The notes under the pieces were generated by a model that saw only the letters and a program-made list of their open reading frames with translations, was not told the origin of the DNA and searched no databases. This document shows positions 3,967 to 64,000 of a stretch of DNA of 64,000 nt, in pieces. The stretch covers positions 206-64,205 of the forward strand of contig JAZSGR010000087.1 of NCBI GenBank assembly GCA_045532825.1. Reading direction: 5' to 3'. How positions within the stretch are numbered: the stretch's first letter is position 1; each line of letters starts with the position of its first letter. The position numbers were made by a program, and so were the translations under genes. This stretch comes from Victivallaceae bacterium. Its GTDB lineage: Bacteria > Verrucomicrobiota > Lentisphaeria > Victivallales > Victivallaceae.

Positions 3967-4533
3967 ATGTACAGTGCTTCCGATCTTAAAAAAGGTCTCA
4001 AGATCGAGATCGACGGTGCCCCCTGGCAGATCACCGAATTTGAATTCTGCAAACCCGGCAAGGGAACCGCTCTCTACCGCTGCCGTATGAAGAACATGAT
4101 CACCGGTATCGGTATGGAAAAAACCTACCGACCCACCGACAAGATCGATGAACCCAACATCGAAGAACGCGAAATGTACTACTCCTACTTCGACGGTCAG
4201 AACTACGTTTTCAGCGATCCGACCACCTACGAAGAGATGTCCGTTGACGCTTCCGTGCTGGGCGACAAGGCTTACTTCCTGATCGAAGACAGCCTCTGCA
4301 ACTTCGTCATCTACAACGATGAGCCGATCGAGATCACTCTGCCGACCTTCATCGAAAAAGAGATCGTTGAAACTGAACCGGGCGTACGCGGCGATACCGC
4401 CACCAACGTGACCAAACCGGCAAAGATCGACAATGGTTTCGAGATCCAGGTCCCGCTGTTCATCAATCAGGGCGACGTGGTCAAGATCGACACCCGTACC
4501 GGAGCTTATGCCGAGCGTGTCAGCAAAGCGTAA
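3967..4533 (+). CDS. efp: Translation elongation factor P
   Basis: 188 aa, MYSASDLKKGLKIEIDGAPWQITEFEFCKPGKGTALYRCRMKN. The KPGKG loop carrying the modifiable lysine is present. Confidence 0.95.
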   Translation: MYSASDLKKGLKIEIDGAPWQITEFEFCKPGKGTALYRCRMKNMITGIGMEKTYRPTDKIDEPNIEEREMYYSYFDGQNYVFSDPTTYEEMSVDASVLGDKAYFLIEDSLCNFVIYNDEPIEITLPTFIEKEIVETEPGVRGDTATNVTKPAKIDNGFEIQVPLFINQGDVVKIDTRTGAYAERVSKA

Positions 4534-4548
4534 AAAAGAGTTTTCAAA

Positions 4549-5445
4549 TTGAGTACTCAAACGCTTTTGAGGAATCTCCGCACCAGATCCGCTATCCTGC
4601 GGGCGGTGCGGGATTTTTTTTATGCCGGGGAGTTTCTGGAAATCGAAACTCCGGTGAAGATACCTGCGCCCGCGCCTGAAGAATACATCGAATCGGTCAC
4701 TGCCGGAAACGGTGAATTTCTGCGTACCAGTCCGGAACTTGCCATGAAAGAGCTGCTTTCGCTCGGCGTGGAAAAAATGTTCCAGATCGGCAGTGCGTTC
4801 AGAGCCGGTGAGTTCGGACGCAAACACCGGGAGGAATTCACCATTCTTGAATACTATGCCGCCGGATGGGATTACAAACAGCTGGCGGATTTCACCGCAA
4901 AGATGCTTGCCCATGCCGCACAGACTGTCCTCGGCAGAACGGATTTCTGTTTTGACGGCAGACACTTTGACATGAAAAATGTCGGATACATCACCGTCGA
5001 TGAGGCTTTCAGAAAATATGCCGGTGTTTCGGCTTTTGATGCGGATAAAGATGACTCTTTTGACGAACTTATGGTTCTCAAGGTCGAACCGCAGCTCGGC
5101 AAAGACGGAATAACGTTCCTCTGTGATTATCCGGCAAAGCGGGCATCATTATCCCGTCTTTCGGCGGCAGATCCGCAAGTGGCGGAACGCTGGGAGGTGT
5201 ACATAGGCGGAATAGAGCTCGGCAATGCCTTCGGCGAACTGACCGATGCCGTTGAGCAGCGCAAACGCTTTGAAGAAGCTCTTTTATTCCGGGCATCACA
5301 GGGAATGTTGAAATATCCTGAACCGTTGGAATTTTACGCCGCCCTCGACCGGGGACTGCCCGATTCAAGCGGATGCGCCATTGGTTTTGACCGGTTGACC
5401 ATGCTGCTCACCGGCAGTACCGATATTGCGGACGTGCGCTTCTGA
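4549..5445 (+). CDS. epmA: EF-P (R)-beta-lysine ligase (PoxA/GenX, truncated class II LysRS paralogue)
   Basis: 298 aa with a TTG start. The class II aaRS core pattern is present (FLEIETP, TSPELAMKELL, FRAGEFGRKHREEFTILEYY, GIELGNAFGEL, GCAIGFDRL). It has no anticodon-binding domain and lies directly downstream of efp. Confidence 0.85.
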   Translation: MSTQTLLRNLRTRSAILRAVRDFFYAGEFLEIETPVKIPAPAPEEYIESVTAGNGEFLRTSPELAMKELLSLGVEKMFQIGSAFRAGEFGRKHREEFTILEYYAAGWDYKQLADFTAKMLAHAAQTVLGRTDFCFDGRHFDMKNVGYITVDEAFRKYAGVSAFDADKDDSFDELMVLKVEPQLGKDGITFLCDYPAKRASLSRLSAADPQVAERWEVYIGGIELGNAFGELTDAVEQRKRFEEALLFRASQGMLKYPEPLEFYAALDRGLPDSSGCAIGFDRLTMLLTGSTDIADVRF

Positions 5446-8499: not shown

Positions 8500-10218
8500 T
8501 TACGGGAACTGCAGAGTATTTTCCACATGTTCAATCTGTTCCGGCGTCAGCTTACAGCAGTTGTATATTATTTTCTGCAGACACTCTTCCGCTCCGGTGT
8601 TTCCGGAAATGATCTCATCGACCAGACGACTTATTTCGGCATCAGTTCCGCCGGAAATTTCCGGGAAAGGCAGCTGCATGAGGCTGCTTTTGAGAATTTT
8701 CACATCGCCAAACATGACAGAATAATAATACCTCAAAACATTGGAATTGAGAAAACCCAGTACGGTACGGATACTCATCCCCGGGATGTGCGGAATCAGG
8801 ATATTGGCACTGTTGAGCACCAGACTGCGGGTATCATCCAGAGCAAAGACCAATCTGTCTGAAATAAATTTATAGACCAGTTTTTCCGGAGCCCGGTAAT
8901 ATTCATCCTTTGCCGCCTGCTGAAAATTTTTACGGTCATAATGCAGAAAACGGCATGCCGGAGACAAACGGTATGCACGGACCTCTTTTCCGGTAAAAAC
9001 CGGTTCCATGCCGTTTTCCAGCCTGTTTTTCACCTTGTTTTTATTATCTCCGGTCACGATGCCCAAAGCAAAATCACTGCGGTCAAGAAAAAAGTGTTTT
9101 ACTGCACATATCTGCGACAGTATCTTACGGTCGGTGTCAGAAATGAAAGCAAAAACATGATCTTTTGAATTTTCCACATCTTGCACAGAAACTTTTCCGC
9201 CGCTTCCGTTCCTGAACATTTCAAAACATTCCGCAGGCGGAGCATTGCTGATCTGAACAGCGGCATATCCGGTCATGACCCCGGTAAATGAACCGGAATG
9301 GATGATGATCTTTTCCAATTTCCTCTGCAGGATGAATTCCCGCAGTCCAGCATGGAGCTTCACCCGCAAAACCGCTTCCGGTAGCAGAAAATTCATCCTT
9401 CCGTCCGGCTTCAGCTGTTCCGCAGCGCGCCGGAAAAAGAGTCCGGAAGACTCACCCTTAACGCCGTGACTGCGGTTTTTTTCCGCCCCCCACGGCGGAT
9501 TGGAGGCTATAAGATCAAATTTCTGCCGGAACAAAGCATTTCCCTCACCCGCAGTTTTCTTTCCGGCAAGGTAATCGCAGCAGAATATCTGCGGAATAAA
9601 ATCATGTTCGCGGTATTTGCACAGCAAATTGACTCTGGCGATAAAAACCGCAACCGGATCTTTATCACATCCCCAAAGCATCTGCGGCAGCTCCGCACCG
9701 GCAGCAAGCAGAAAAGCACCGCTGCCGCAACAGGGATCAAAAAAGGTCTTTCCGTCTGAAAAATCAAAGTCCTCCAGCATACTTTCCACGATCCGGTGCG
9801 GAGTATAATAGGAACCGGCTATACTTTTTTCCCCTTCAGTGAGCAGACACTGATAAACAAATCCCAGTATATCAGCTTCGTTTTCCGGCACATATATATC
9901 ACTGAAAGCCCGGTGATAAGTTTCTGAAAATTCCGCAAGGACCGTCTGCGCCCTGCCGGAGTGGAAAAGATTTTTCTGTTTCAGCAGATTTACAGCAAGA
10001 GAAAAAACCGCCCGGCGGCGGGAAATATCATGTTCTGCACAAATGCGGAGTACCTGATAAGCAAATTTTTCATTCCTGCGGTCGTCGATGTATTCCAGAG
10101 GACATATCCGCTTTTCCGAACAGCTTTTGTTTGCCCGGTGCCGCAGTCTGCCGCAAGTCCCGGTTTCCAGACGCCGCCAGTTGCGGGAAGTGGCTTCAGA
10201 TACTTTCATTGCCGCCAT
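8500..10218 (-). CDS. N6-adenine DNA methyltransferase, Eco57I/TaqI-like gamma class, with C-terminal TaqI-like specificity domain
   Basis: 572 aa. SAM motif I is FFDPCCGSGAFLL and catalytic motif IV is NPPWG, with YYTPHRIV upstream. The C-terminal part (LGFLNSNVLRYYY) resembles the TaqI-type target-recognition domain. No nuclease gene is adjacent. The start may be the second ATG (10209), because 10196-10218 overlaps the upstream gene. Confidence 0.8.
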   Translation of the reverse strand: MAAMKVSEATSRNWRRLETGTCGRLRHRANKSCSEKRICPLEYIDDRRNEKFAYQVLRICAEHDISRRRAVFSLAVNLLKQKNLFHSGRAQTVLAEFSETYHRAFSDIYVPENEADILGFVYQCLLTEGEKSIAGSYYTPHRIVESMLEDFDFSDGKTFFDPCCGSGAFLLAAGAELPQMLWGCDKDPVAVFIARVNLLCKYREHDFIPQIFCCDYLAGKKTAGEGNALFRQKFDLIASNPPWGAEKNRSHGVKGESSGLFFRRAAEQLKPDGRMNFLLPEAVLRVKLHAGLREFILQRKLEKIIIHSGSFTGVMTGYAAVQISNAPPAECFEMFRNGSGGKVSVQDVENSKDHVFAFISDTDRKILSQICAVKHFFLDRSDFALGIVTGDNKNKVKNRLENGMEPVFTGKEVRAYRLSPACRFLHYDRKNFQQAAKDEYYRAPEKLVYKFISDRLVFALDDTRSLVLNSANILIPHIPGMSIRTVLGFLNSNVLRYYYSVMFGDVKILKSSLMQLPFPEISGGTDAEISRLVDEIISGNTGAEECLQKIIYNCCKLTPEQIEHVENTLQFP

Positions 10219-57674: not shown

Positions 57675-59948
57675 ATGAAACTTATAACCCTTGGAACCAG
57701 TCATGGTGATCCGGAGCTGAACCGCTTCAACTCCTCGCTGCTGCTGCGCAGCTCCGCCGGTGACTATATTTTTGAAGCAGGAGCTCCGGTCAATGCACTG
57801 CTGATCCGCAAAAACATACCGTTCAGCAATATCAAAGCGGTTTTCGTAAGTCACTCGCACGAAGATCACACCGGCGGACTGCCGGGACTGGTGAAATCGC
57901 TGATAAAGCGTCCGGTCCCCGGACAGCACACCCGTCTGCTGCTGCCGGAACAGGAATGTATCGATGCGCTGAAAGCCTTTGTTGATTCGACCCACCGTCC
58001 CTGGACGGATGATCTTATTTCAACAGAAGTCATCAGCTCCGGAACGATCTACGATGACGGCAACCTGCGGGTAACGGCATTTGCCACGGACCACATGGCG
58101 ATCAGTGGCAAAGCCTTTCCAAGCTGGGCGTTCCTCGCGGAAGCAGAGGGCAAACGCATCGTTTTCACTGGAGATTTAAGCAGAGATCTCCATGATTTTC
58201 CCATTGCCGCCTTCGATGCTCCTGCGCTCTGCGTAATGGAGTGCCAGCACTATAATGCCAAACTTGCCGGAGAACTGCTGAAAAAACTTCCGGTATCAGG
58301 ATTTATCGGAGTTCATATCTCCAGCCGGTGGAACGGTCACGCAAATGAATTTTACCGGACACTTGGTTCTCCGGATTTTCCCTTTGCATTTGCAGAAGAC
58401 GGAATGGAGTTTGATCTTGACCTGCCGGTAAGCTCCGGTTTTTCCGTTGCCGTTCTCGCTGATCTTCACCTGCCGGATGCTGATGATACGGTAAAAGAAC
58501 AGGTGCTGGACTGGACCGTTTCGGAACTGAAACGCTCAGGAGCCGGTCTGATCGCTGCCGCAGGCGACATGACTGGAACAGGTTCGCTTCAGGCAGCCCG
58601 CAGATTACGGAAAAAACTGAAAAATACCGGCTGCCGCTACATGTTCACCCCCGGCAACTCCGATCTGCGTTCAGCCGGTTCAACAGCAGAAATGCTCAGG
58701 ATACTCGGCACGTCTGACATTTCAGAACATGTTATTCTTCTTGACAGTTCGCAGGGAAAACTGAGCCGTAAATCAAGGATACTGCTCGCCGGACTGCTGG
58801 CGGACCGGAGCAGAAAAAACCTGCTCGCCATAACCCACTACCCGCCGGAGAACCTGCCGGAAGATGACGCCATGCTGCTGACAGCCGCGGCAAGATCCGG
58901 GATCATCAATCATCTGGTTTACGGTCACATGCATCATGATAAAAAGCATATCTGGAAAGGTCTGCCCTGCGAATGTCTCCGCGGACTTGATCCTGATAAA
59001 GCCTCAGGCGGTGCACCGTCATTTGCCATATTCAGCAGGTTGCCGGATAAGTCGTGGCAGAGAAAGAATAAAGTTTTCAGAACAGCGGTCCCCTCCTCAT
59101 GGAGCAGGGCGGAAAAGCAGAGCTTTATTGAAAATCTCGGTTTGTCGGCGATGAAAGATCCCTTCGGCACGCTGGATTTTGCCATTTCTGCCGGAGTACC
59201 GGTCCTGGAGTGGCGATTTGCCCTGTTTTCACCTGAAGATATGCAGAAATTCAAAAGCAAACTGGCTGACTGGCGCAAAAACGGCGGCAGGTGTTTATCT
59301 ATCCACTTTCCTGATATCCGGCTGGAAGGCGGTTCTCTCACGGGAACAGATATTCTCCGTATTGCGGTAAAAACGACGATAGAACTTGAAGCGCAGCGTA
59401 TAACGCTGCACGTTCCGCGTGTCACTGCCGGAGAGTTTGCCGATGATGCAACAGCTTCGCTCATTGCGGATGAAACAGCAGAAATACTTGCTCCGCTGGC
59501 GCAAAAAAGCATTGCTGCCGGCGTGGAAAATCTGCACATGTCTCCCGGTGAAAAAAGTGATCTTTCGCGCGGTTTCGGATACACGCCGCAGGAGGTGATA
59601 AGTTTTGCCGATATGCTGACCCGGCGCGGCATTCCGGCGGGCATACATCTTGATATCGGACACGCAAGAAACAATGCGCCGTTTTCCAAAACGTTCAATA
59701 TCAGCGACTGGTTTGCGATCTGCGGCAGCCGTATCAACGGCATGCATCTGCATCAGGTCACAGTCGATGAAAGCGGAAAAATGCTCAACCACCGGGCATT
59801 CACAGAGCCGTTCGGCAAGCTGATTTCCCTTGCTTCACTTTTCACGGCATGGAAAACGCACGCTGTCCCGCATGTTCCGCTGATCCTGGAAATTCGTCAG
59901 GATAGAGGTCCTGAATCTCTTGAACTGTTGAGAACTGTTTTCAAATAA
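57675..59948 (+). CDS. Three-domain fusion: MBL-fold hydrolase + calcineurin-like metallophosphoesterase + xylose-isomerase-like TIM barrel
   Basis: 757 aa. The N-terminal region has VSHSHEDHTGG, the HxHxDH motif. The middle region has VLADLHLPD, AAGDMTGTG, PGNSD and VYGHMHHD, the metallophosphoesterase motifs. The C-terminal region (HFPD...ITLHVP...VENLH...IHLDIGHA...GMHLHQ) matches the sugar-phosphate isomerase/epimerase TIM barrel pattern. Confidence 0.65.
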   Translation: MKLITLGTSHGDPELNRFNSSLLLRSSAGDYIFEAGAPVNALLIRKNIPFSNIKAVFVSHSHEDHTGGLPGLVKSLIKRPVPGQHTRLLLPEQECIDALKAFVDSTHRPWTDDLISTEVISSGTIYDDGNLRVTAFATDHMAISGKAFPSWAFLAEAEGKRIVFTGDLSRDLHDFPIAAFDAPALCVMECQHYNAKLAGELLKKLPVSGFIGVHISSRWNGHANEFYRTLGSPDFPFAFAEDGMEFDLDLPVSSGFSVAVLADLHLPDADDTVKEQVLDWTVSELKRSGAGLIAAAGDMTGTGSLQAARRLRKKLKNTGCRYMFTPGNSDLRSAGSTAEMLRILGTSDISEHVILLDSSQGKLSRKSRILLAGLLADRSRKNLLAITHYPPENLPEDDAMLLTAAARSGIINHLVYGHMHHDKKHIWKGLPCECLRGLDPDKASGGAPSFAIFSRLPDKSWQRKNKVFRTAVPSSWSRAEKQSFIENLGLSAMKDPFGTLDFAISAGVPVLEWRFALFSPEDMQKFKSKLADWRKNGGRCLSIHFPDIRLEGGSLTGTDILRIAVKTTIELEAQRITLHVPRVTAGEFADDATASLIADETAEILAPLAQKSIAAGVENLHMSPGEKSDLSRGFGYTPQEVISFADMLTRRGIPAGIHLDIGHARNNAPFSKTFNISDWFAICGSRINGMHLHQVTVDESGKMLNHRAFTEPFGKLISLASLFTAWKTHAVPHVPLILEIRQDRGPESLELLRTVFK

Positions 59949-59961
59949 AGGAGTTTGATTT

Positions 59962-61020
59962 ATGACGGATCTGAAAAACAATCAGGGCGGTATTTTCCGC
60001 AGCAGTGTCAATGTTGAAACACATGCAAAAAACAAATCAGAGAACAAAAAACATTTCACCCTTATCGAGCTGCTGGTAGTCACTTCACAACACTGCCGTC
60101 ATTTTATACATAACTCTTGTTTTGCGTCAGCAAAAACTTTTTCGCTTTTCTTGACCCTCCGCCGCCCTGCGGGCTATGGAGGGCAGGAAGATAAAACCAG
60201 TCCTTATAATACTTGCAAAGCAAGTGCTTCATATTTGCCGCAGGCAAACGCTTCATGCAGCAACGCTGCGCTTCACACGGCAGAGCCGTGCTTCATTCGA
60301 TCAACGTTCACGTTGATCGAGCTTCTGGTTGTGATCGCTATTATTGCGATATTGGCGGCGATGCTGCTTCCTGCGCTGCAGCAGGCGCGGGAACGGGCGA
60401 GGATGACCAACTGCATGAGTAATGAAAGGGGCATCGGGACGGGTGTAAGCATGTATGTGCAGGACTTTGATTATCTTCCGGGCTGCGGAGACGGTTCCAC
60501 CGGCAACGGAAGTTTGTTCACCTATGTCGGACCTTATGTCGGTTACGGCAACATGATGCATTCCAGGGTATTTTACACCGACAGCCGTTCAGTGCTGCCG
60601 TTGTACCTGTGTCCATCTGACAACGAACCGATTTTGAAAGGAACCAATTTCGGGGGCTTGAACGGAGTTTCCTACATTGCCTCGAATGTGCTGGCAAGAA
60701 CGGAGATCAATGGTGAGATCAAAACGATTTCAGGCAGAAAGATCTCAACTGTAAAAAATCCATCGCAAAAATTTTTCTTTCTGGAATCCGGAAACGGAGC
60801 TGAGAATAAATATTCCGCCGGATACGCTTCCCACAAACGTGTTGCCTACCGGCATCCGGCGGGAGCGGCGAAAATTTTTGATTCAAACCAGCTGGTCGGC
60901 AATGCCGGTATGAACGTCTGCTACGCCGACGGACGTGCCTCCGCATGGCGCGGTGCCGTCACCACTGCCGATACTGATGATCCAAATGGAATATACACTA
61001 AACACTGGATACTCAACTGA
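59962..61020 (+). CDS. Pseudopilin-like (prepilin-type N-terminal methylation motif) protein with duplicated FTLIELLVV motif and 75-codon in-frame insert
   Basis: 352 aa with AAGGAG 8 nt upstream of the ATG. The first motif lies at 60055-60081, the insert at 60082-60306, and the second motif at 60307-60333. The second motif continues into the full hydrophobic helix [29 protein letters not shown]. Confidence 0.8.
60082..60232 (+). repeat. Conserved 151-nt insert module, copy 1
   Basis: 146 of 151 positions are identical to 61287-61437. It starts immediately after the GTC (Val) codon of the first motif. It contains hairpins TTTTGC/GCAAAA (60120-60135, then a T-rich tract), CCCTCC..GCCC/GGGC..GGAGGG (60155-60183) and CTTGC/GCAAG (60212-60224). 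Confidence 0.9.
60212..60296 (+). repeat. Array of four mini-hairpins, each followed by YGCTTCAY
   Basis: The four hairpins are CTTGC-AAA-GCAAG tGCTTCAt, TTTGCC-GCA-GGCAAA cGCTTCAt, GCAGC-AAC-GCTGC gCTTCAc and CACGGC-AGA-GCCGTG CTTCAt. The period is about 20-23 nt. Every stem is 5-6 bp and every loop is 3 nt. Confidence 0.85.
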
Positions 61021-61049
61021 ACTGAAACTCTCCCTCTGTACAAGCACGG

Positions 61050-61088
61050 CTCAACTTGTGAAAAGACAATGCACAAGTTGAGTTTTTT
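61050..61088 (+). terminator. Rho-independent terminator after the first pseudopilin-like gene
   Basis: An 11-bp stem, CTCAACTTGTG (61050-60) with CACAAGTTGAG (61072-82), followed by TTTTTT (61083-88). Confidence 0.8.
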
Positions 61089-61232
61089 GCATAATCTTTG
61101 CATTGTTTTCACATATAAACACCTTGTTATTGCAAAAACACGGGATATAGTAATCCGTAACATGGGAAATAATTTTTCAGCACACAAAACAGTATGCAGA
61201 AAACAATTACAAAAAAACGGAGGGTAAACAAA

Positions 61233-62294
61233 ATGCAGGTCAAAAACAGTAAAAACAATTTTACGTTGATTGAACTTCTGGTGGTCACTTCACAACACTG
61301 CCGTCATTTTATACATAACTCTTGTTTTGCGTCAGCAAAAACTTTTTCGCTTTTCTTGACCCTCCGCCGCCCTGCGGGCTATGGAGGGCAGGAAGGTAAA
61401 ACCAGTCCTTATAATGCTTGCGGAGCAAGCGCTTCATGTACTGCACATAACGCCGTTTTTGCGTCAGCAAAAACTTTTTCGCTTTTCTTGAAAGGGGAAT
61501 GGGGTTTTGGGAAAGGGGAAAACCTCTTTTCCCGGGAAAAGAAGTTTTCCCCTTTCCCCAAGAACGCCTTTACCTTAATAGAGCTGCTGGTCGTCATCGC
61601 GATCATTGCGATACTTGCGGCGATGCTGATGCCGGCATTGCAGCAGGCGCGTGAGCGCGGACGCACCATATCATGTGTTTCCAATCTGCGTCAGCTTTAC
61701 AATTACTGGTTTGAATATGCCAATGACAACAAAGATTATGTTCTTGCTGCGTGGAAACCGATGACTCCTGCCGGAGATCTGATAAACTGGATGGAAAAAC
61801 TGCTGCTTGACCGTTTCAATGTAAAACTTGGCGACCCGGTCCCGAAAAGCACCGGACAGCTTTTTTCCTGTCCCTCGGACAACAGCGGCAATTATGTGTA
61901 CAATAAAACTAAAATAAAACCCGCCAGCTATGCGCTCAACCGCGGCTTCGGCTGGGGTTCGTTCAGCGGCATCAACGGCTGTGCAAGTTCCGGAGGGATT
62001 TATTTCTCAAAAATCACCCAGCGCAATCCCAATACCGGAAAAACCATCGTTTTTGCCGACAACTGGAAACGGGCGATGATGAAGGGCAACAGTAATGCTG
62101 CGCTCTCTTCTGATACCAAGGTCGCGCTTCAGAAAGAATATGATCTTGGTATTTACAGTCCGCATGGAAACGGAATGAACACTGTATTCCTGAACGGCAG
62201 TGTTTCGACGGTAAATTACAGATGGAGGTGCAACTGGTGTTTTCTCGGCGATCTCTGGAACCGGAAACCCACTGAAATTTCCATGGTCCAATAA
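61233..62294 (+). CDS. Pseudopilin-like (prepilin-type N-terminal motif, H-X9-(D/N)G-like C-terminus) protein with duplicated FTLIELLVV motif and 94-codon in-frame insert
   Basis: I prefer the start at the ATG at 61233 ([18 protein letters not shown], with GGAGGG upstream); the track ORF starts at 61194. The first motif lies at 61260-61286, the insert at 61287-61568 and the second motif at 61569-61595, followed by [32 protein letters not shown] near the C-terminus resembles the H-X9-DG motif. Confidence 0.8.
61287..61437 (+). repeat. Conserved 151-nt insert module, copy 2
   Basis: Partner of 60082-60232. Four of the five differences cluster around the CTTGC/GCAAG hairpin (loop AAA versus GGA and the flanking bases). 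None falls in a stem. Confidence 0.9.
61457..61491 (+). repeat. Third copy of the 35-nt sub-repeat TTTTGCGTCAGCAAAAACTTTTTCGCTTTTCTTGA
   Basis: Identical to 60120-60154 and 61325-61359, which lie inside the 151-nt modules. It is a hairpin TTTTGC-GTCA-GCAAAA followed by a T-rich tract and translates as [11 protein letters not shown] each time. Confidence 0.9.
61509..61558. repeat. 50-nt near-perfect palindrome (G-rich arm / C-rich arm) inside the insert
   Basis: GGGAAAGGGGAAAAC (61509-23) pairs with GTTTTCCCCTTTCCC (61544-58), 15 bp. The inner CTTTTCC/GGAAAAG stem closes a CCGG centre, with one C-A mismatch. Both strands encode nearly the same peptide: [18 protein letters not shown] forward and [18 protein letters not shown] in the reverse ORF 61409-61684. 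Confidence 0.9.
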
Positions 62295-62310
62295 AAAGTT
62301 TCTGTAAAAA

Positions 62311-64000
62311 ATGTATATGTCAAACCCGTCTGTACTGCGGAGGATCCTCCGCAGGTCGTTTGCTGTATGTTTTTCTGCGGCGGTGGTATCCGTCGCACAA
62401 GCTGTTGAGAATAACGTTATGAATGCAAAAAAATATGTCGTGACAAGCCGCATTGACGGTTTCAAGGATTCTTATCATCTCCACGATGCCGGAGCAGGCA
62501 GTGATTGTCTGGTCCATCTCCACGGACACAACGCAAACGGCGATCAGCCGTTTGTCAGAGAAGAGATCGCTGCTCAACTGCGTCCACTGGTAAAAAAGTA
62601 TAATTTAAGTATTTTTTCACCCAATCTGCGGAACAATGCCTGGATGTCACCGGCAGCAGTTGCCGATCTGCGCGATATGCTGCTGGAGCTGAAGGCAAAG
62701 CGCAAGTATAAACGTTTTTTCTTTATCTGCGCCAGCATGGGCGGTACCGGCGGATTGATCTTTGCCTCACAGCATCCGGAACTGGTCAGTGGTCTGGCTG
62801 TCCTCGGTGCGGCGACCGATCTTCCCCGTTACCGGGAGTACCTGCTGAGATATCACAAAGAGACCGGCAGGGATATCTTCCTTGAGATCGCACAGGCGAT
62901 AAAAAATAATCACACTGAAAAATCTCTTGAAGAATACAGTGTCTGCAAAAACTTTGAAAAACTCACCATGCCGCTGGTATTTTATCACGGCAGAGAGGAT
63001 TATGTGATGCCGGTCACAGAAATGTATGCGCTTCAGCAGAAAATGGTTAATTTCCCCAATGCTGAATTCAAAGCTGTTCCCGGTCCTCACAACGCGCCCG
63101 TGGAGTTCAGAGAGGAGGTCTTTGAAAAGATCTATCATTACCAGGCTCCGGCAAAGGTGAAAAATGATCTTGAGATCATCATTCCGGTAACTCTTGAAAG
63201 CGATTGGAAGAGCTGCGAAGAGACAGCTGCTGCGATCATGGAACAGTACCGGCTTTACGGTTTCACGAATTTTGCGCTGGCAATGCCGGATAAAGGCTGG
63301 CGCAGCCGTCATTATCCGCCGGAAAGTTTCTTTGCCGGACAGGCGGAAAAGCTGCTCAAGGTAAAAAAACTTCTGCCGCCGTTCATCCGTTGCGGCTGGT
63401 GGCACACTCTGATACTGAAATCCGGTCCGACTCCGGGACTTACAAGGATAATGCGCCTCAACGGGACGGAATCTCCGTTCTCGACCTGTCCGCTTGATCC
63501 GGAATACCGCAGACGTTTTGCCCAAGACGTTGCGACCGTGTTGAAAACAGCCAAACCGGCATTCATGATAACCGAAGATGACTTCAGTTTGAACTGTCAC
63601 GGCGGTCCCGGATGTTACTGCAAACATCATCTGGAAGCATTTGCCAAAAAAGAGGGCAGATATTATTCCCGTGAGGAACTGGAAAAACTTTTCACCCAAA
63701 CTCCGGAACAGTCACGGGAACTTCTCCGCCGCTATCAGGAGTCTCTCAAAGACAGTCTGGTACAGTTCGCTTCAGCCATCCGTGAAGCAGCGGACTCCGT
63801 TGCTCCGGAGATCCCCATCGGCTTCATGCAGCCGGGAAATCATGCCAAAGACGGCAACTCTGCCGAAGCAGTAGCAAGAGCTCTGGCGGGCAAAAATCAC
63901 ACTCCGTTCATACGTTTCAACGGCACGTTCTACTGTGGTGAAAGCATTCCTGGAATTCCTTCGCGGCTGTTCAACTGTCTTTATTACAAACAGCACATCA
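62311..64000 (+). CDS. Secreted protein: N-terminal alpha/beta-hydrolase (esterase-like) domain plus uncharacterised C-terminal domain; 3' end cut by window edge
   Basis: Absent from the track because it has no stop inside the window. Manual translation from the ATG at 62311 reads MYMSNPSVLRRILRRSFAVCFSAAVVSVAQAVENNVMNAKKYVV...HLHGHNANGD...FFICASMGGTGGLIFASQHPELV...FYHGREDYVMP... and then ...PGCYCKHHLEAFAKKEGRYYSREELE... It stays open to 64000. An in-frame TAA lies at 62305-07. The N-terminus looks like a signal peptide. The minus-strand ORF 62767-63699 is its shadow. Confidence 0.7.
   Translation, partial: MYMSNPSVLRRILRRSFAVCFSAAVVSVAQAVENNVMNAKKYVVTSRIDGFKDSYHLHDAGAGSDCLVHLHGHNANGDQPFVREEIAAQLRPLVKKYNLSIFSPNLRNNAWMSPAAVADLRDMLLELKAKRKYKRFFFICASMGGTGGLIFASQHPELVSGLAVLGAATDLPRYREYLLRYHKETGRDIFLEIAQAIKNNHTEKSLEEYSVCKNFEKLTMPLVFYHGREDYVMPVTEMYALQQKMVNFPNAEFKAVPGPHNAPVEFREEVFEKIYHYQAPAKVKNDLEIIIPVTLESDWKSCEETAAAIMEQYRLYGFTNFALAMPDKGWRSRHYPPESFFAGQAEKLLKVKKLLPPFIRCGWWHTLILKSGPTPGLTRIMRLNGTESPFSTCPLDPEYRRRFAQDVATVLKTAKPAFMITEDDFSLNCHGGPGCYCKHHLEAFAKKEGRYYSREELEKLFTQTPEQSRELLRRYQESLKDSLVQFASAIREAADSVAPEIPIGFMQPGNHAKDGNSAEAVARALAGKNHTPFIRFNGTFYCGESIPGIPSRLFNCLYYKQHI

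Follow-up and report, generated by a model that had tools for sequence, protein, structure and literature searches.

Introduction

tRNA-gene islands and integron cassettes (attI/attC) use a conserved gene end as their target and supply a new copy of it, and palindrome-associated elements derived from IS200/IS605 as well as REP/BIME mosaics are associated with HUH Y1 transposases/RAYTs. Rickettsia palindromic elements (RPEs; Ogata et al. 2000) are short in-frame palindromic repeats in protein-coding genes (PMC10969869). Here we analyse inserts in two pilin-like genes that resemble each of these systems in part and that, in our judgement, quite probably belong to a family of non-autonomous, non-coding-type, site-specific, in-frame, hairpin-rich mosaic cassettes that reside in gut Lentisphaeria (Victivallales-like) within DUF1559 pilin-like genes, at the codons of the N-terminal class III signal peptide.

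As far as RPEs are described in the source above, both they and the cassettes are short, palindrome-rich, multi-copy and selfish, and lie in frame inside genes that are left intact. That source describes RPEs as dispersed over many unrelated genes, at points where the protein fold tolerates them, whereas the cassettes, which likewise are in-frame palindromic insertions, lack this dispersal in unrelated genes and occupy one nucleotide position of one signal-peptide motif. Unlike RPEs as portrayed there, they bring a replacement copy of the motif, consist of exchangeable modules in mosaic arrangement and form tandem stacks.

With tRNA-gene islands and integron cassettes they share the regenerated intact gene, the precise empty sites, the hybrid left and right (att) sites, the joined ends that recreate the full site, and tandem arrays with a complete site after each unit, i.e. 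the hallmarks of Campbell- or integron-like elements. In contrast to both, they measure only ~0.2-0.5 kb, have no gene of their own and lie in frame within a coding region; the attC-type R''/L''-L'/R' architecture of integrons is absent. IS200/IS605-derived elements and the cassettes both insert on the 3' side of a short fixed sequence and do not duplicate the target; for the cassettes this sequence is (C)TGGT, as expected of a PATE-type site. Like the cassettes, IS200/IS605 and REP/BIME elements are mosaics of hairpin units joined by conserved linkers and have a hairpin within a few nt of the right end: here, hairpin h5 lies 8 nt from the cassette end, and no similar hairpin is present at the left end. 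However, REP/BIME elements are extragenic and conserve the palindrome, whereas the cassettes are intragenic and have variable stems joined by a conserved linker, (G)CTTCA.

Results

The window, i.e. the whole 64,000-nt stretch of DNA under study, contains two adjacent paralogues in the same orientation. Host gene 1 (59962-61020, + strand) encodes a DUF1559/prepilin-type N-terminal-methylation pilin-like protein of 352 aa with the cassette in frame. Host gene 2 (61233-62294, + strand) encodes a pilin-like protein of 353 aa, counted from the ATG at 61233, upstream of which lies the RBS GGAGGG; its ORF is open from 61194. Both proteins match Pfam PF07963 (N_methyl) and PF07596 (SBP_bac_10) at the second of two FTLIELLVV copies, and the N-terminal methylation motif, the hydrophobic helix and the DUF1559 (SBP_bac_10) region of type IV pilin-like/DUF1559 (H-X9-DG) proteins are all present. 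The mature parts can be aligned over ~105 residues only (45%), mainly the N-terminal helix, in line with a first-pass annotation of this DNA, which had described them as barely alignable beyond that helix.

Conspecific strains have the same two genes with the cassette absent or with a different interior. Gene 1 encodes 268 aa without a cassette (P0089), 345 aa with another cassette and 352 aa in the window, this last allele being known from one assembly only (a single NCBI contig); gene 2 encodes 250 aa without a cassette (P0094/P0095), 315 aa with a shorter cassette and 353 aa in the window. Insert-free homologues were also found at 55-70% identity. The DNA of the empty alleles L089/L090 is 99.3% and 98.8% identical to the window flanks.

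Comparing empty and filled sites reveals that in both genes the cassette is simply inserted behind (C)TGGT, within codon 8 of FTLIELLVV. The target-derived FTLIELLV codons (copy A, positions 0-22) of gene 1 lie at 60055-60077 and match L089/L090 up to 60077 (..CTGGT^), the insertion point, from where on the sequences differ; those of gene 2 lie at 61260-61282 and match the empty alleles up to ..CTTCTGGT. Copy A is composed of target[0-22] and the element's 4 nt, copy B of element[0-22] and the target's 4 nt, and in both genes the empty site equals copyA[0-22] + copyB[23-26]. The element's first 4 nt (RGTC) finish codons 8-9 of the interrupted motif and its last 23 nt are fresh FTLIELLV codons. 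As the element thus brings replacement codons, the gene has two FTLIELLVV copies and stays readable, the second copy joining the native helix seamlessly. Four left-end types insert at this point, the three besides L1 starting right after GGT.

The cassettes are multi-copy, show presence/absence polymorphism and contain no ORF beyond the host frame, traits reminiscent of MITEs; the terminal inverted repeats and target-site duplication of MITEs were not found. A duplication is excluded by the simple insertion at TGGT^, and agreement between the two copies over their last 4-6 nt, seen in just 4 of 14 cases, is close to the chance level. No inverted-repeat relationship exists between the ends, GGTCACCTCAC... 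and ...GAGCTATTGGT, and the only inverted match (12/15) is between the left end and the internal hairpin h4.

Cassette 1 (60078-60329, + strand, 252 nt), delimited by comparison of empty and filled alleles, consists of AGTC, a 225-nt interior and the element-borne FTLIELLV codons, and is in frame and stop-free. Its left end (60078-60105, + strand), AGTC + ACTTCACAACACTGCCGTCATTTT (24 nt), is common to all L1-type cassettes. Next come the modules M1 (60106-60154) and M2 (60155-60210), i.e. 60106-60210 on the + strand, where a four-way locus alignment finds M5 instead in the alleles L086/L087/L088. They are followed by a hairpin array (60211-60321, + strand) comprising h1 (60211-60225), h2 (60233-60249), h3 (60257-60269), h4 (60276-60290) and h5 (60296-60321), in which stems vary between units and the (G)CTTCA linker between hairpins is conserved. 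The 3' arm of h5 is formed by the FTLIE codons of copy B. The element-borne FTLIELLV codons (copy B, positions 0-22) occupy 60307-60329 on the + strand, and target sequence resumes at 60330. Cassette 2 (61283-61591, + strand, 309 nt) is made up of the left end (61283-61310), M1 (61311-61359), M2 (61360-61415), h1 (61416-61430), a partial M1 repeat (61445-61491), the perfect palindrome M4 (61506-61561) and element-borne FTLIELLV codons (61569-61591, + strand). Each cassette lies within a DUF1559 pilin-like gene between two FTLIELLVV codon copies, and the true right end of both is the first 23 nt of the second copy. These 23 element-borne nt are near-invariant across copies in different genes and species, and the sequence is variable afterwards.

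Folding gave z-scores of -3.8 for the hairpin array of cassette 1 and -5.4 for cassette 2. Across 17 copies 99% of the hairpin cells are paired, with three pairs showing compensatory changes, a number reached in only 2 of 500 shuffles.

The first-pass annotation had drawn attention to a 151-nt module (60082-60232, + strand) shared with 61287-61437, and an ungapped comparison at offset 1205 confirmed that 146 of 151 positions are identical, the mismatches being at 60191, 60211, 60217, 60218 and 60225. Its flanks, whose equal identity the annotation had named as fatal to its proposal, are far more diverged than the module (20-70%): the 27 nt upstream, which include the first FTLIELLVV codons and had already been called divergent, match at 19 of 27 positions, and past 60232 the two sequences are unrelated. 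The left boundary is indeed sharp but begins 3-4 nt further left than proposed, GTC being common too and the first mismatch falling at 60078 (A/G). Four of the five mismatches had been placed around the CTTGC/GCAAG hairpin with its stems intact, and all four lie within h1, which in gene 1 is recipient-type sequence. The pair that closes ACTTGC-AAA-GCAAGT, 60211 and 60225, changes jointly from A-T to G-C, i.e. in a compensatory manner, and 60217/60218 are in the loop.

The identity is not a chance match because the same sequence, sought elsewhere as the annotation had advised, turns up in further genes and assemblies, again with this left boundary (L001, L002, L009, L086-L088 and the proteins P0001-P0003, P0008, P0012, P0014, P0016, P0017 and P0044). 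The 151 nt are not the element itself, as had been assumed, but left end + M1 + M2 + h1, i.e. pieces of the 252- and 309-nt cassettes. Accordingly, of the two boundaries presumed to be reproducible only the left one recurs, being the universal cassette left end of ~65 copies, whereas the right one is a breakpoint inside a mosaic. The notion of a discrete element that was recently moved or converted holds; independent insertion of a 151-nt unit does not. Since gene 1 elsewhere carries M5 between the same left end and h1, the identity between the genes reflects module swap/gene conversion instead.

Such exchange is visible between strains. In gene 1 of L086, L087 and L088 a 204-nt M5 interior lies between the same left end and h1, and gene 2 of L086/L087 is without the 132-nt M2-M1' unit and has another palindrome variant, so that presence/absence and interior-swap polymorphism occur between ~99% identical strains. 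Micro-conversion patches are found at 60326-60345, the gene-2 body of L087 differs from about 61634, and P0090 and P0091 have other leaders on the gene-1 body. Cassette interiors are probably exchanged by recombination at shared segments, which would explain why the window cassettes share left end, M1, M2 and h1; in the window's gene 1, M5 was probably replaced by M1-M2 very recently.

A DNA-pattern scan found ~65 cassette copies in MAGs of gut Lentisphaeria, all but one at the FTLIELLVV site of pilin-like genes, and copy A ends in GTC in ~90% of the 65. A scan with the left-end motif returned 76 stretches, ~58 from Lentisphaeria MAGs and ~18 chance matches in other phyla; the Lentisphaeria matches come after FTLIELLVV codons except for L052 (minus strand), which has a non-pilin left flank. 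In the tandem cassette array of L052 the middle site is exactly the element's 23 nt + GGTC. At least 14 loci were counted in the MAG SIG96 and at least 9 in RGIG4167. Sizes range from ~165 to 540 nt, with L059, L068 and L083 being deletion derivatives. All data come from short-read metagenome assemblies, in which contigs break at these repeats; at least 18 contigs end inside an element, as expected because it is a multi-copy repeat.

Among 28 complete inserts 25 are in frame and stop-free, the in-frame inserts falling into 10 length classes, all multiples of 3, and the pilin frame alone is without stops. Approximately 10-20% of the copies contain a stop, a frameshift or a truncation (L001, L005, L057, L011, L002, L009). 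Pairwise divergence between 14 copies is 0.70 upstream, 0.21 in copy A, 0.031 in the insert, 0.12 in copy B and 0.33 in the downstream helix codons, i.e. cassette copies are ~97% alike across species and the neighbouring conserved helix codons ~67%. The insert shows 10 synonymous and 22 nonsynonymous substitutions (neutral expectation 135:448), the flanking helix codons 59 and 31. At the level of these substitution counts the cassette interior is shown to be under no amino-acid constraint, yet it remains in frame and free of stops.

Among the 29 window ORFs scanned no recombinase or transposase was detected, and none was seen to encode TnpA or a RAYT. In a search of window positions 59500-62500 against Rfam (E<=1) no ribozyme or riboswitch was found, the best matches staying far below gathering scores (spurious miRNA-type matches on the M4 palindrome, and Gut-1 on the minus strand with 25.8 bits vs a gathering score of 50), and the host proteins contain no intein Pfam domain. 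As the frame is conserved, RNA-level removal is disfavoured and internal initiation is needless as an explanation; an in-frame ATG, GTG or TTG that could serve as an internal start is lacking directly upstream of copy B, where only an ATT is present, 9 nt after a GGAG in h4. Reverse-strand ORFs of 50 and 53 aa in the module were dismissed, their open frames not being kept in other cassette types. Exact M2 and M1 patterns had no match in JGI metagenomes, nor did the hairpin-array pattern in viral contigs or the 252-nt cassette in plasmid and phage BLAST searches. An ICE seemingly using the same site (L002) was discarded as well, the first ~65 nt past the junction being a truncated L3-type cassette with the conjugation genes lying beyond. 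The literature on FTLIELLVV, DUF1559 and Lentisphaerae/Victivallis pilins yielded no prior description.

Discussion

Judging from the alleles, the fixed TGGT^ point and the precise empty sites point to a site-specific enzyme. We speculate that insertion and excision are catalysed in trans by such an enzyme at TGGT, although, with no recombinase or transposase in the scanned window ORFs, its enzymology is conjecture. One candidate would be Campbell-type recombination via a circular form whose joined ends recreate the full FTLIELLVV site, with the expected circular junction ...CTATTGGT|GGTCACC...; an HUH-type single-strand transposase would be another.

How far the junctions could have arisen without dedicated mobility machinery has to be weighed against this. 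A one-time insert might have been spread among pilin paralogues by RecA-type homologous recombination/gene conversion, with the conserved codons on both sides acting as homology. Comparison of strains shows the N-terminal codons to be a hot spot of recombination (60326-60345, L087, P0090, P0091), modules are swapped at shared segments, and in 3 of 14 copies copy B diverges before position 23, a shorter element-type tract that fits homologous micro-conversion as well as site-specific exchange. However, one and the same <=5-nt interval (TGGT) contains both junctions in two genes, in ~10 of the 14 L1 copies and in cassettes of three unrelated types; the gene-1 repeats share a longer identical stretch, ATCGAGCT, which the exchange did not use; left-flank homology amounts to just 23 nt at ~80% identity; and the minus-strand copy in L052 has a non-pilin left flank. 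We therefore consider this route unlikely. Still less probable is that the insert is a functional gene part, i.e. a structured mRNA leader acting on translation or stability or a propeptide, kept by selection rather than by mobility. The strong predicted structure with its compensatory changes, the very high nucleotide conservation across species and the sequestration of the FTLIE codons of copy B by h5 would suit such a role, whereas ~99% identical strains with no insert or with two different interiors in the same gene, the absent amino-acid constraint, the interchangeable mosaic interiors with their deletion derivatives and the lack of an Rfam family match speak against it.

That the mosaic inserts, including M1-M2 in the window's gene 1, are chimeric assembly paths through short repeats appears very improbable. 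Contigs do end inside elements and the 352-aa allele does stand on one NCBI contig, but alternative paths have just ~27 nt of exact sequence in common, which is shorter than usual final k-mer sizes; the in-frame states agree between independent assemblies; repeat collapse cannot produce empty alleles; and M2/h1 of gene 1 and gene 2 differ at 5 positions, hence the assembler did not copy the former from the latter. Ordinary tandem pilin duplication with a conserved N-terminal domain that merely diverged more slowly can practically be dismissed in spite of the adjacent, equally oriented paralogues, as the first-pass annotation had argued: insert-free alleles of both genes refute it, and the constrained flanking codons are 20-30% diverged as opposed to 3% in the unconstrained insert.

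Returning to the site-specific mobile cassette, we propose that the native ATG serves as the translation start, with ribosomes reading through the cassette, and that prepilin peptidase would cut before the second FTLIELLVV, the cassette peptide most probably going with the extended leader. As the peptide would be discarded with this leader, insertion may be phenotypically near-silent. We are evenly divided on whether selfish DNA indeed hides in the gene by regenerating the class III cleavage site downstream and having its peptide removed by host prepilin peptidase. Two points count against leader removal at the second site, namely a -1 residue other than the canonical Gly and the unusual length that a leader of ~100 aa would have. 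Conceptually, the cassettes are analogous to inteins and self-splicing introns, i.e. selfish gene insertions whose product is removed after expression so that the host protein is intact. However, inteins and introns remove themselves, whereas cassette removal would be accomplished by the host prepilin peptidase on the regenerated motif, and, unlike them, the cassettes have neither intein blocks nor ribozyme matches.

If this is true, a mobile element colonises coding DNA without cost, with signal-peptide processing removing its translation product. This would be a previously undescribed counterpart, at the protein level, of intron or intein removal, with a host enzyme doing the work. With the target motif present in hundreds of paralogues, this gene family would then offer a large set of safe landing sites, and the cassettes would turn the 5' ends of its members into a hot spot of recombination where promoters, leaders and gene bodies are reshuffled. 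The exchanges of leaders, cassettes and bodies seen between strains suggest how a very large family of surface proteins in gut bacteria could diversify rapidly. Annotators should be aware that cassette-bearing genes will be split or misjoined by gene callers and protein clustering. Finally, the cassettes explain the poor assembly of these genomes at such genes, and also why many Lentisphaeria proteins annotated as "prepilin-type" have long N-terminal extensions rich in Cys/His.

Cassettes in two neighbouring pilin-like genes

Gene 1 (59962-61020, plus strand, 352 aa) and gene 2 (61194-62294, plus strand, 366 aa; 353 aa from the likely start, ATG 61233) encode DUF1559/N-terminal-methylation pilin-like proteins, each of which contains FTLIELLVV twice. 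The left codons, copy A (60055-60081 and 61260-61286, plus strand), are preceded by a short Lys-rich leader and the right ones, copy B (60307-60333 and 61569-61595, plus strand), run on into the canonical helix; 225 nt in gene 1 and 282 nt in gene 2 lie between them, in frame and without stops. Both interiors are mosaics of the left end ACTTCACAACACTGCCGTCATTTT followed by modules M1 and M2, continuing in gene 1 with five hairpins (h1-h5, spacers (G)CTTCA), the FTLIE codons of copy B being the 3' arm of h5, and in gene 2 with part of M1 repeated 132 nt past the first M1 and a perfect 28+28-nt palindrome, M4. Fold z-scores relative to shuffled controls are -3.8 (gene 1 region) and -5.4 (gene 2 region). 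Rfam E-value matches at 61498-61586 (mir-3122, MIR1507, mir-657, HIV_FS2) are spurious, i.e. they reflect the perfect palindrome M4 and lie far under the gathering scores. Just 3' of gene 1 (61048-61091) an intrinsic-terminator-like hairpin, GGCTCAACTTGTG...CACAAGTTGAG, precedes TTTTTT; thus, genes 1 and 2 are probably separate transcription units.

The first-pass annotation had reported a 151-nt identity between 60082-60232 and 61287-61437. In an ungapped comparison at a constant offset of 1205 nt, 146 of the 151 positions are indeed identical, 19 of the preceding 27 nt match, and beyond 60232 the sequences are unrelated. The left boundary is as sharp as described, but the identity starts at 60079, i.e. 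it includes GTC, rather than at 60082. The mature parts of the proteins, said to be barely alignable, can be aligned over only ~105 residues (45% identity). The mismatches are 60191, 60211, 60217, 60218 and 60225, the last four falling in h1 (ACTTGC-AAA-GCAAGT): 60211 and 60225 are its closing pair, covarying from A-T to G-C, and 60217/60218 lie in its loop, so that the stem is intact, as had been claimed.

Insertion point

Insert-free alleles, which have only one FTLIELLVV, are found for gene 1 (P0089, 268 aa) and gene 2 (P0094/P0095, 250 aa); the DNA of the alleles of both genes is in the stretches L089/L090. The empty site of gene 1 consists of TTCACCCTTATCGAGCTGCTGGT joined to GGTG ATCGCG. 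In the filled gene, copy A has the same 23 nt, then AGTC and the left end, and copy B reads TTCACGTTGATCGAGCT(AT/TC)TGGT, then GGTG or TGTG, then ATCGC. In gene 2 the empty site, ...CTTCTGGT joined to CGTC, corresponds to ...GGT + GGTC in copy A and ...GGT + CGTC in copy B of the filled gene. Thus, in both genes the insertion is simple, falling inside the codon 8 TGGT or immediately 3' of it, and target duplication is absent. The cassettes accordingly span 60078-60329 (252 nt) and 61283-61591 (309 nt) on the plus strand, each made up of 4 nt on the left, the interior, and FTLIELLV codons (23 nt) on the right. Joining the cassette ends would restore a full FTLIELLVV site, and the predicted junction is the middle site of a tandem array in L052, a stretch from another assembly. 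Three further left-end types (AAGCAGTGC..., RAGTNNNACTTGYYAAATA..., GACTACTGCACAATAG...) also start directly after GGT.

Reading frame and constraint

Of 28 complete inserts, 25 are in frame and stop-free, a count without reading-frame bias as the search was DNA-based; their lengths are 138, 147, 192, 204 (14 copies), 225, 273, 282, 297, 384 and 513 nt. Only the pilin frame of the insert is stop-free, the deletion derivatives L059, L068 and L083 are likewise in frame, and ~10-20% of copies are disrupted. Pairwise divergence among the 14 copies of the 204-nt type (interior with module M5), which come from different genes and species, is 0.70 in the upstream sequence, 0.21 in copy A, 0.031 in the insert, 0.12 in copy B and 0.33 in the following helix codons. 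The flanks are not equally identical; had they been so, this would have spoken against a discrete module. The first 23 nt of copy B (TTCACGCTGATCGAGCTATTGGT) are almost invariant, variation beginning at the next base. In copy A all but the last codon vary, and that codon is GTC in ~90% of 65 copies.

Variable insert sites show no preference among codon positions (9/12/9), and of the distinct substitutions 10 are synonymous and 22 nonsynonymous (neutral expectation 135:448), i.e. the interior is without protein constraint except for staying open. In the adjacent helix codons the ratio is 59:31; the interior DNA is thus far more uniform than codons under strong protein constraint. Covariation, proposed as a check on the hairpins, is present: h1-h5 are 99% paired over 17 distinct copies and three pairs carry compensatory double changes, a count reached by 2 of 500 shuffles and by no slid control. 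Further compensatory differences separate cassette subtypes (h1 A-T/G-C, h2 G-C/A-T, GCACT/AGTGC vs GCACC/GGTGC). M5 (in L019 and other 204-nt-type copies; L086 4120-4200) contains TACGGA four times at an exact 10-nt spacing (TGTACGGATCAGTACGGATGTGTACGGAAACATACGGAG), a DNA- or RNA-level periodicity out of step with the codons, which could be a protein-binding array.

Copies in other genomes

The translated interior matches 18 proteins of Lentisphaeria MAGs and gut metagenomes, each of them a short fragment or an N-terminus, with the same modules in other combinations. The MAG names of these relatives are also what points to Lentisphaeria as the taxon of the window. An exact DNA pattern scan for the left-end motif (one genome per species) gave 76 stretches, ~58 of them in Lentisphaeria/Victivallales MAGs of ruminant guts; the other ~18, in unrelated phyla, equal the chance expectation. 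The left boundary recurs: in Lentisphaeria the motif lies directly 3' of FTLIELLVV codons, themselves following a start codon and short leader. The single exception, L052 1-160 (minus strand), is a cassette with the window's left end (L1-type) and a non-pilin left flank (...AGCAACAGT joined to GGTCACATCAC...), the contig ending within the element; it stems from a rare off-target insertion or else from a rearrangement. At least 18 contigs break off within the element, which is expected of a multi-copy repeat, and single MAGs carry at least 14 (SIG96) and at least 9 (RGIG4167) loci.

Other pilin-like homologues (P0044, P0057, P0063, P0064) have long N-terminal extensions: P0044 contains 2.5 tandem M1-M2 units and lacks the first FTLIELLVV, and in P0063/P0064, which are Victivallis proteins, KAHGQAER repeats lie 5' of a likely internal GTG start. 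In L009 (1240-1459) the gene is cut short (TTAQ*) after the second FTLIELLV copy. Beyond it lie a terminator-like hairpin plus T-run and then GCGCGGCACGCGCATTGACTCGTCGGTGAAAGTCCGATAC..., which, judged by eye and not by a model, resembles a group II intron at its 5' end. L002 (10286-20285) holds a fragment from the 5' end of a pilin gene (leader, cassette, a second FTLIELLV and a truncated cassette with another left end, L3-type, with a stop), 3' of which lie conjugative-transfer genes (TraG/VirD4-like, TrbI, ParA-like); nothing in the L002 sequence indicates use of the TGGT site by the conjugative element itself.

The same locus in other strains

All sequences analysed here come from short-read metagenome assemblies, and several assemblies other than that of the window have this chromosomal region at ~98-99% identity. 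In L086, L087 and L088 gene 1 has the leader, left end and h1-h5 of the window, including the same h1 sequence, with M5 replacing M1+M2; the swap runs between two shared segments, ...CACTGCCGTCATTTT (up to 60105) and h1 (from ~60208). Gene 2 is arranged in L088 as in the window, and in L086 and L087 it is without the 132-nt M2-M1' unit and has a different palindrome variant. The window's 352-aa allele occurs once. P0090 and P0091 are gene-1 bodies under other leaders. In L087 (~4520-5160 vs window 61634-62294) the promoter, leader and cassette of gene 2 are retained, whereas from ~61634 the pilin body is a wholly different one; as this breakpoint lies inside conserved helix codons, whole gene bodies are swapped among paralogues. 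Upstream of gene 1, the strains with empty pilin sites have a split 757-aa metallo-beta-lactamase/metallophosphoesterase gene (L089/L090 1712-3985 vs window 57675-59948; 475-aa and 265-aa ORFs), probably by frameshift.

Origin and fate of the cassettes

The cassettes are a polymorphic, multi-copy, non-autonomous family with a fixed insertion point, exchangeable interior modules and an interior kept open in the host frame, and they regenerate their own target motif. The junctions are compatible with Campbell-type site-specific exchange, with HUH-type insertion of a single strand 3' of TGGT and with copying from a filled paralogue set off by a nuclease. A mechanism based on homology alone is a poorer fit: the two repeats of gene 1 have a longer stretch of identity (ATCGAGCT) in common, yet the exchange did not use it, which argues for a site-specific event and not random microhomology. 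Homologous recombination nevertheless certainly acts on top of it, in module swaps, micro-conversions and leader and body swaps. The 151-nt identity probably arose when the gene 1 cassette recently traded its M5 interior for M1-M2 of another M1-M2 cassette. The donor would be either gene 2, with 100% identity over 60079-60190, or an unsampled copy that is closer still; the latter is suggested by the M2/h1 variant of gene 1 (GAT...ACTTGCAAAGCAAGT, TATTTGCC), which matches variants in L005 and not gene 2.

Since frame maintenance would make sense only so, we infer that translation proceeds from the native ATG through the cassette to a functional protein. Regeneration of a complete motif beside the native helix suggests prepilin processing at the second FTLIELLVV copy, whereby the cassette peptide (net positive, Cys/His-rich) would be discarded together with the leader. 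In this clade residue -1 to either copy is not Gly, so that canonical prepilin-peptidase rules are inapplicable.

The nearest known phenomenon is the Rickettsia palindromic elements, in-frame palindromic repeats within genes (PMC10969869), although these are scattered over unrelated genes and regenerate no target motif. In the logic of their junctions the cassettes resemble integrative elements supplying a replacement gene end, as well as integron cassette arrays, and TSD-less insertion beside a fixed tetranucleotide recalls IS200/IS605-type elements. The cassettes have neither the TIRs and TSD that define a MITE nor the extragenic location and conserved palindrome of REP/BIME, and we found no description of them in the searchable literature. 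A gene elsewhere in the window, at 8503-10218 on the minus strand, has a product of 572 aa, an N6-adenine DNA methyltransferase whose specificity domain is TaqI-like (Eco57I/N6_Mtase/TaqI_C); it is possibly part of a restriction-modification system and is unrelated to the cassettes.
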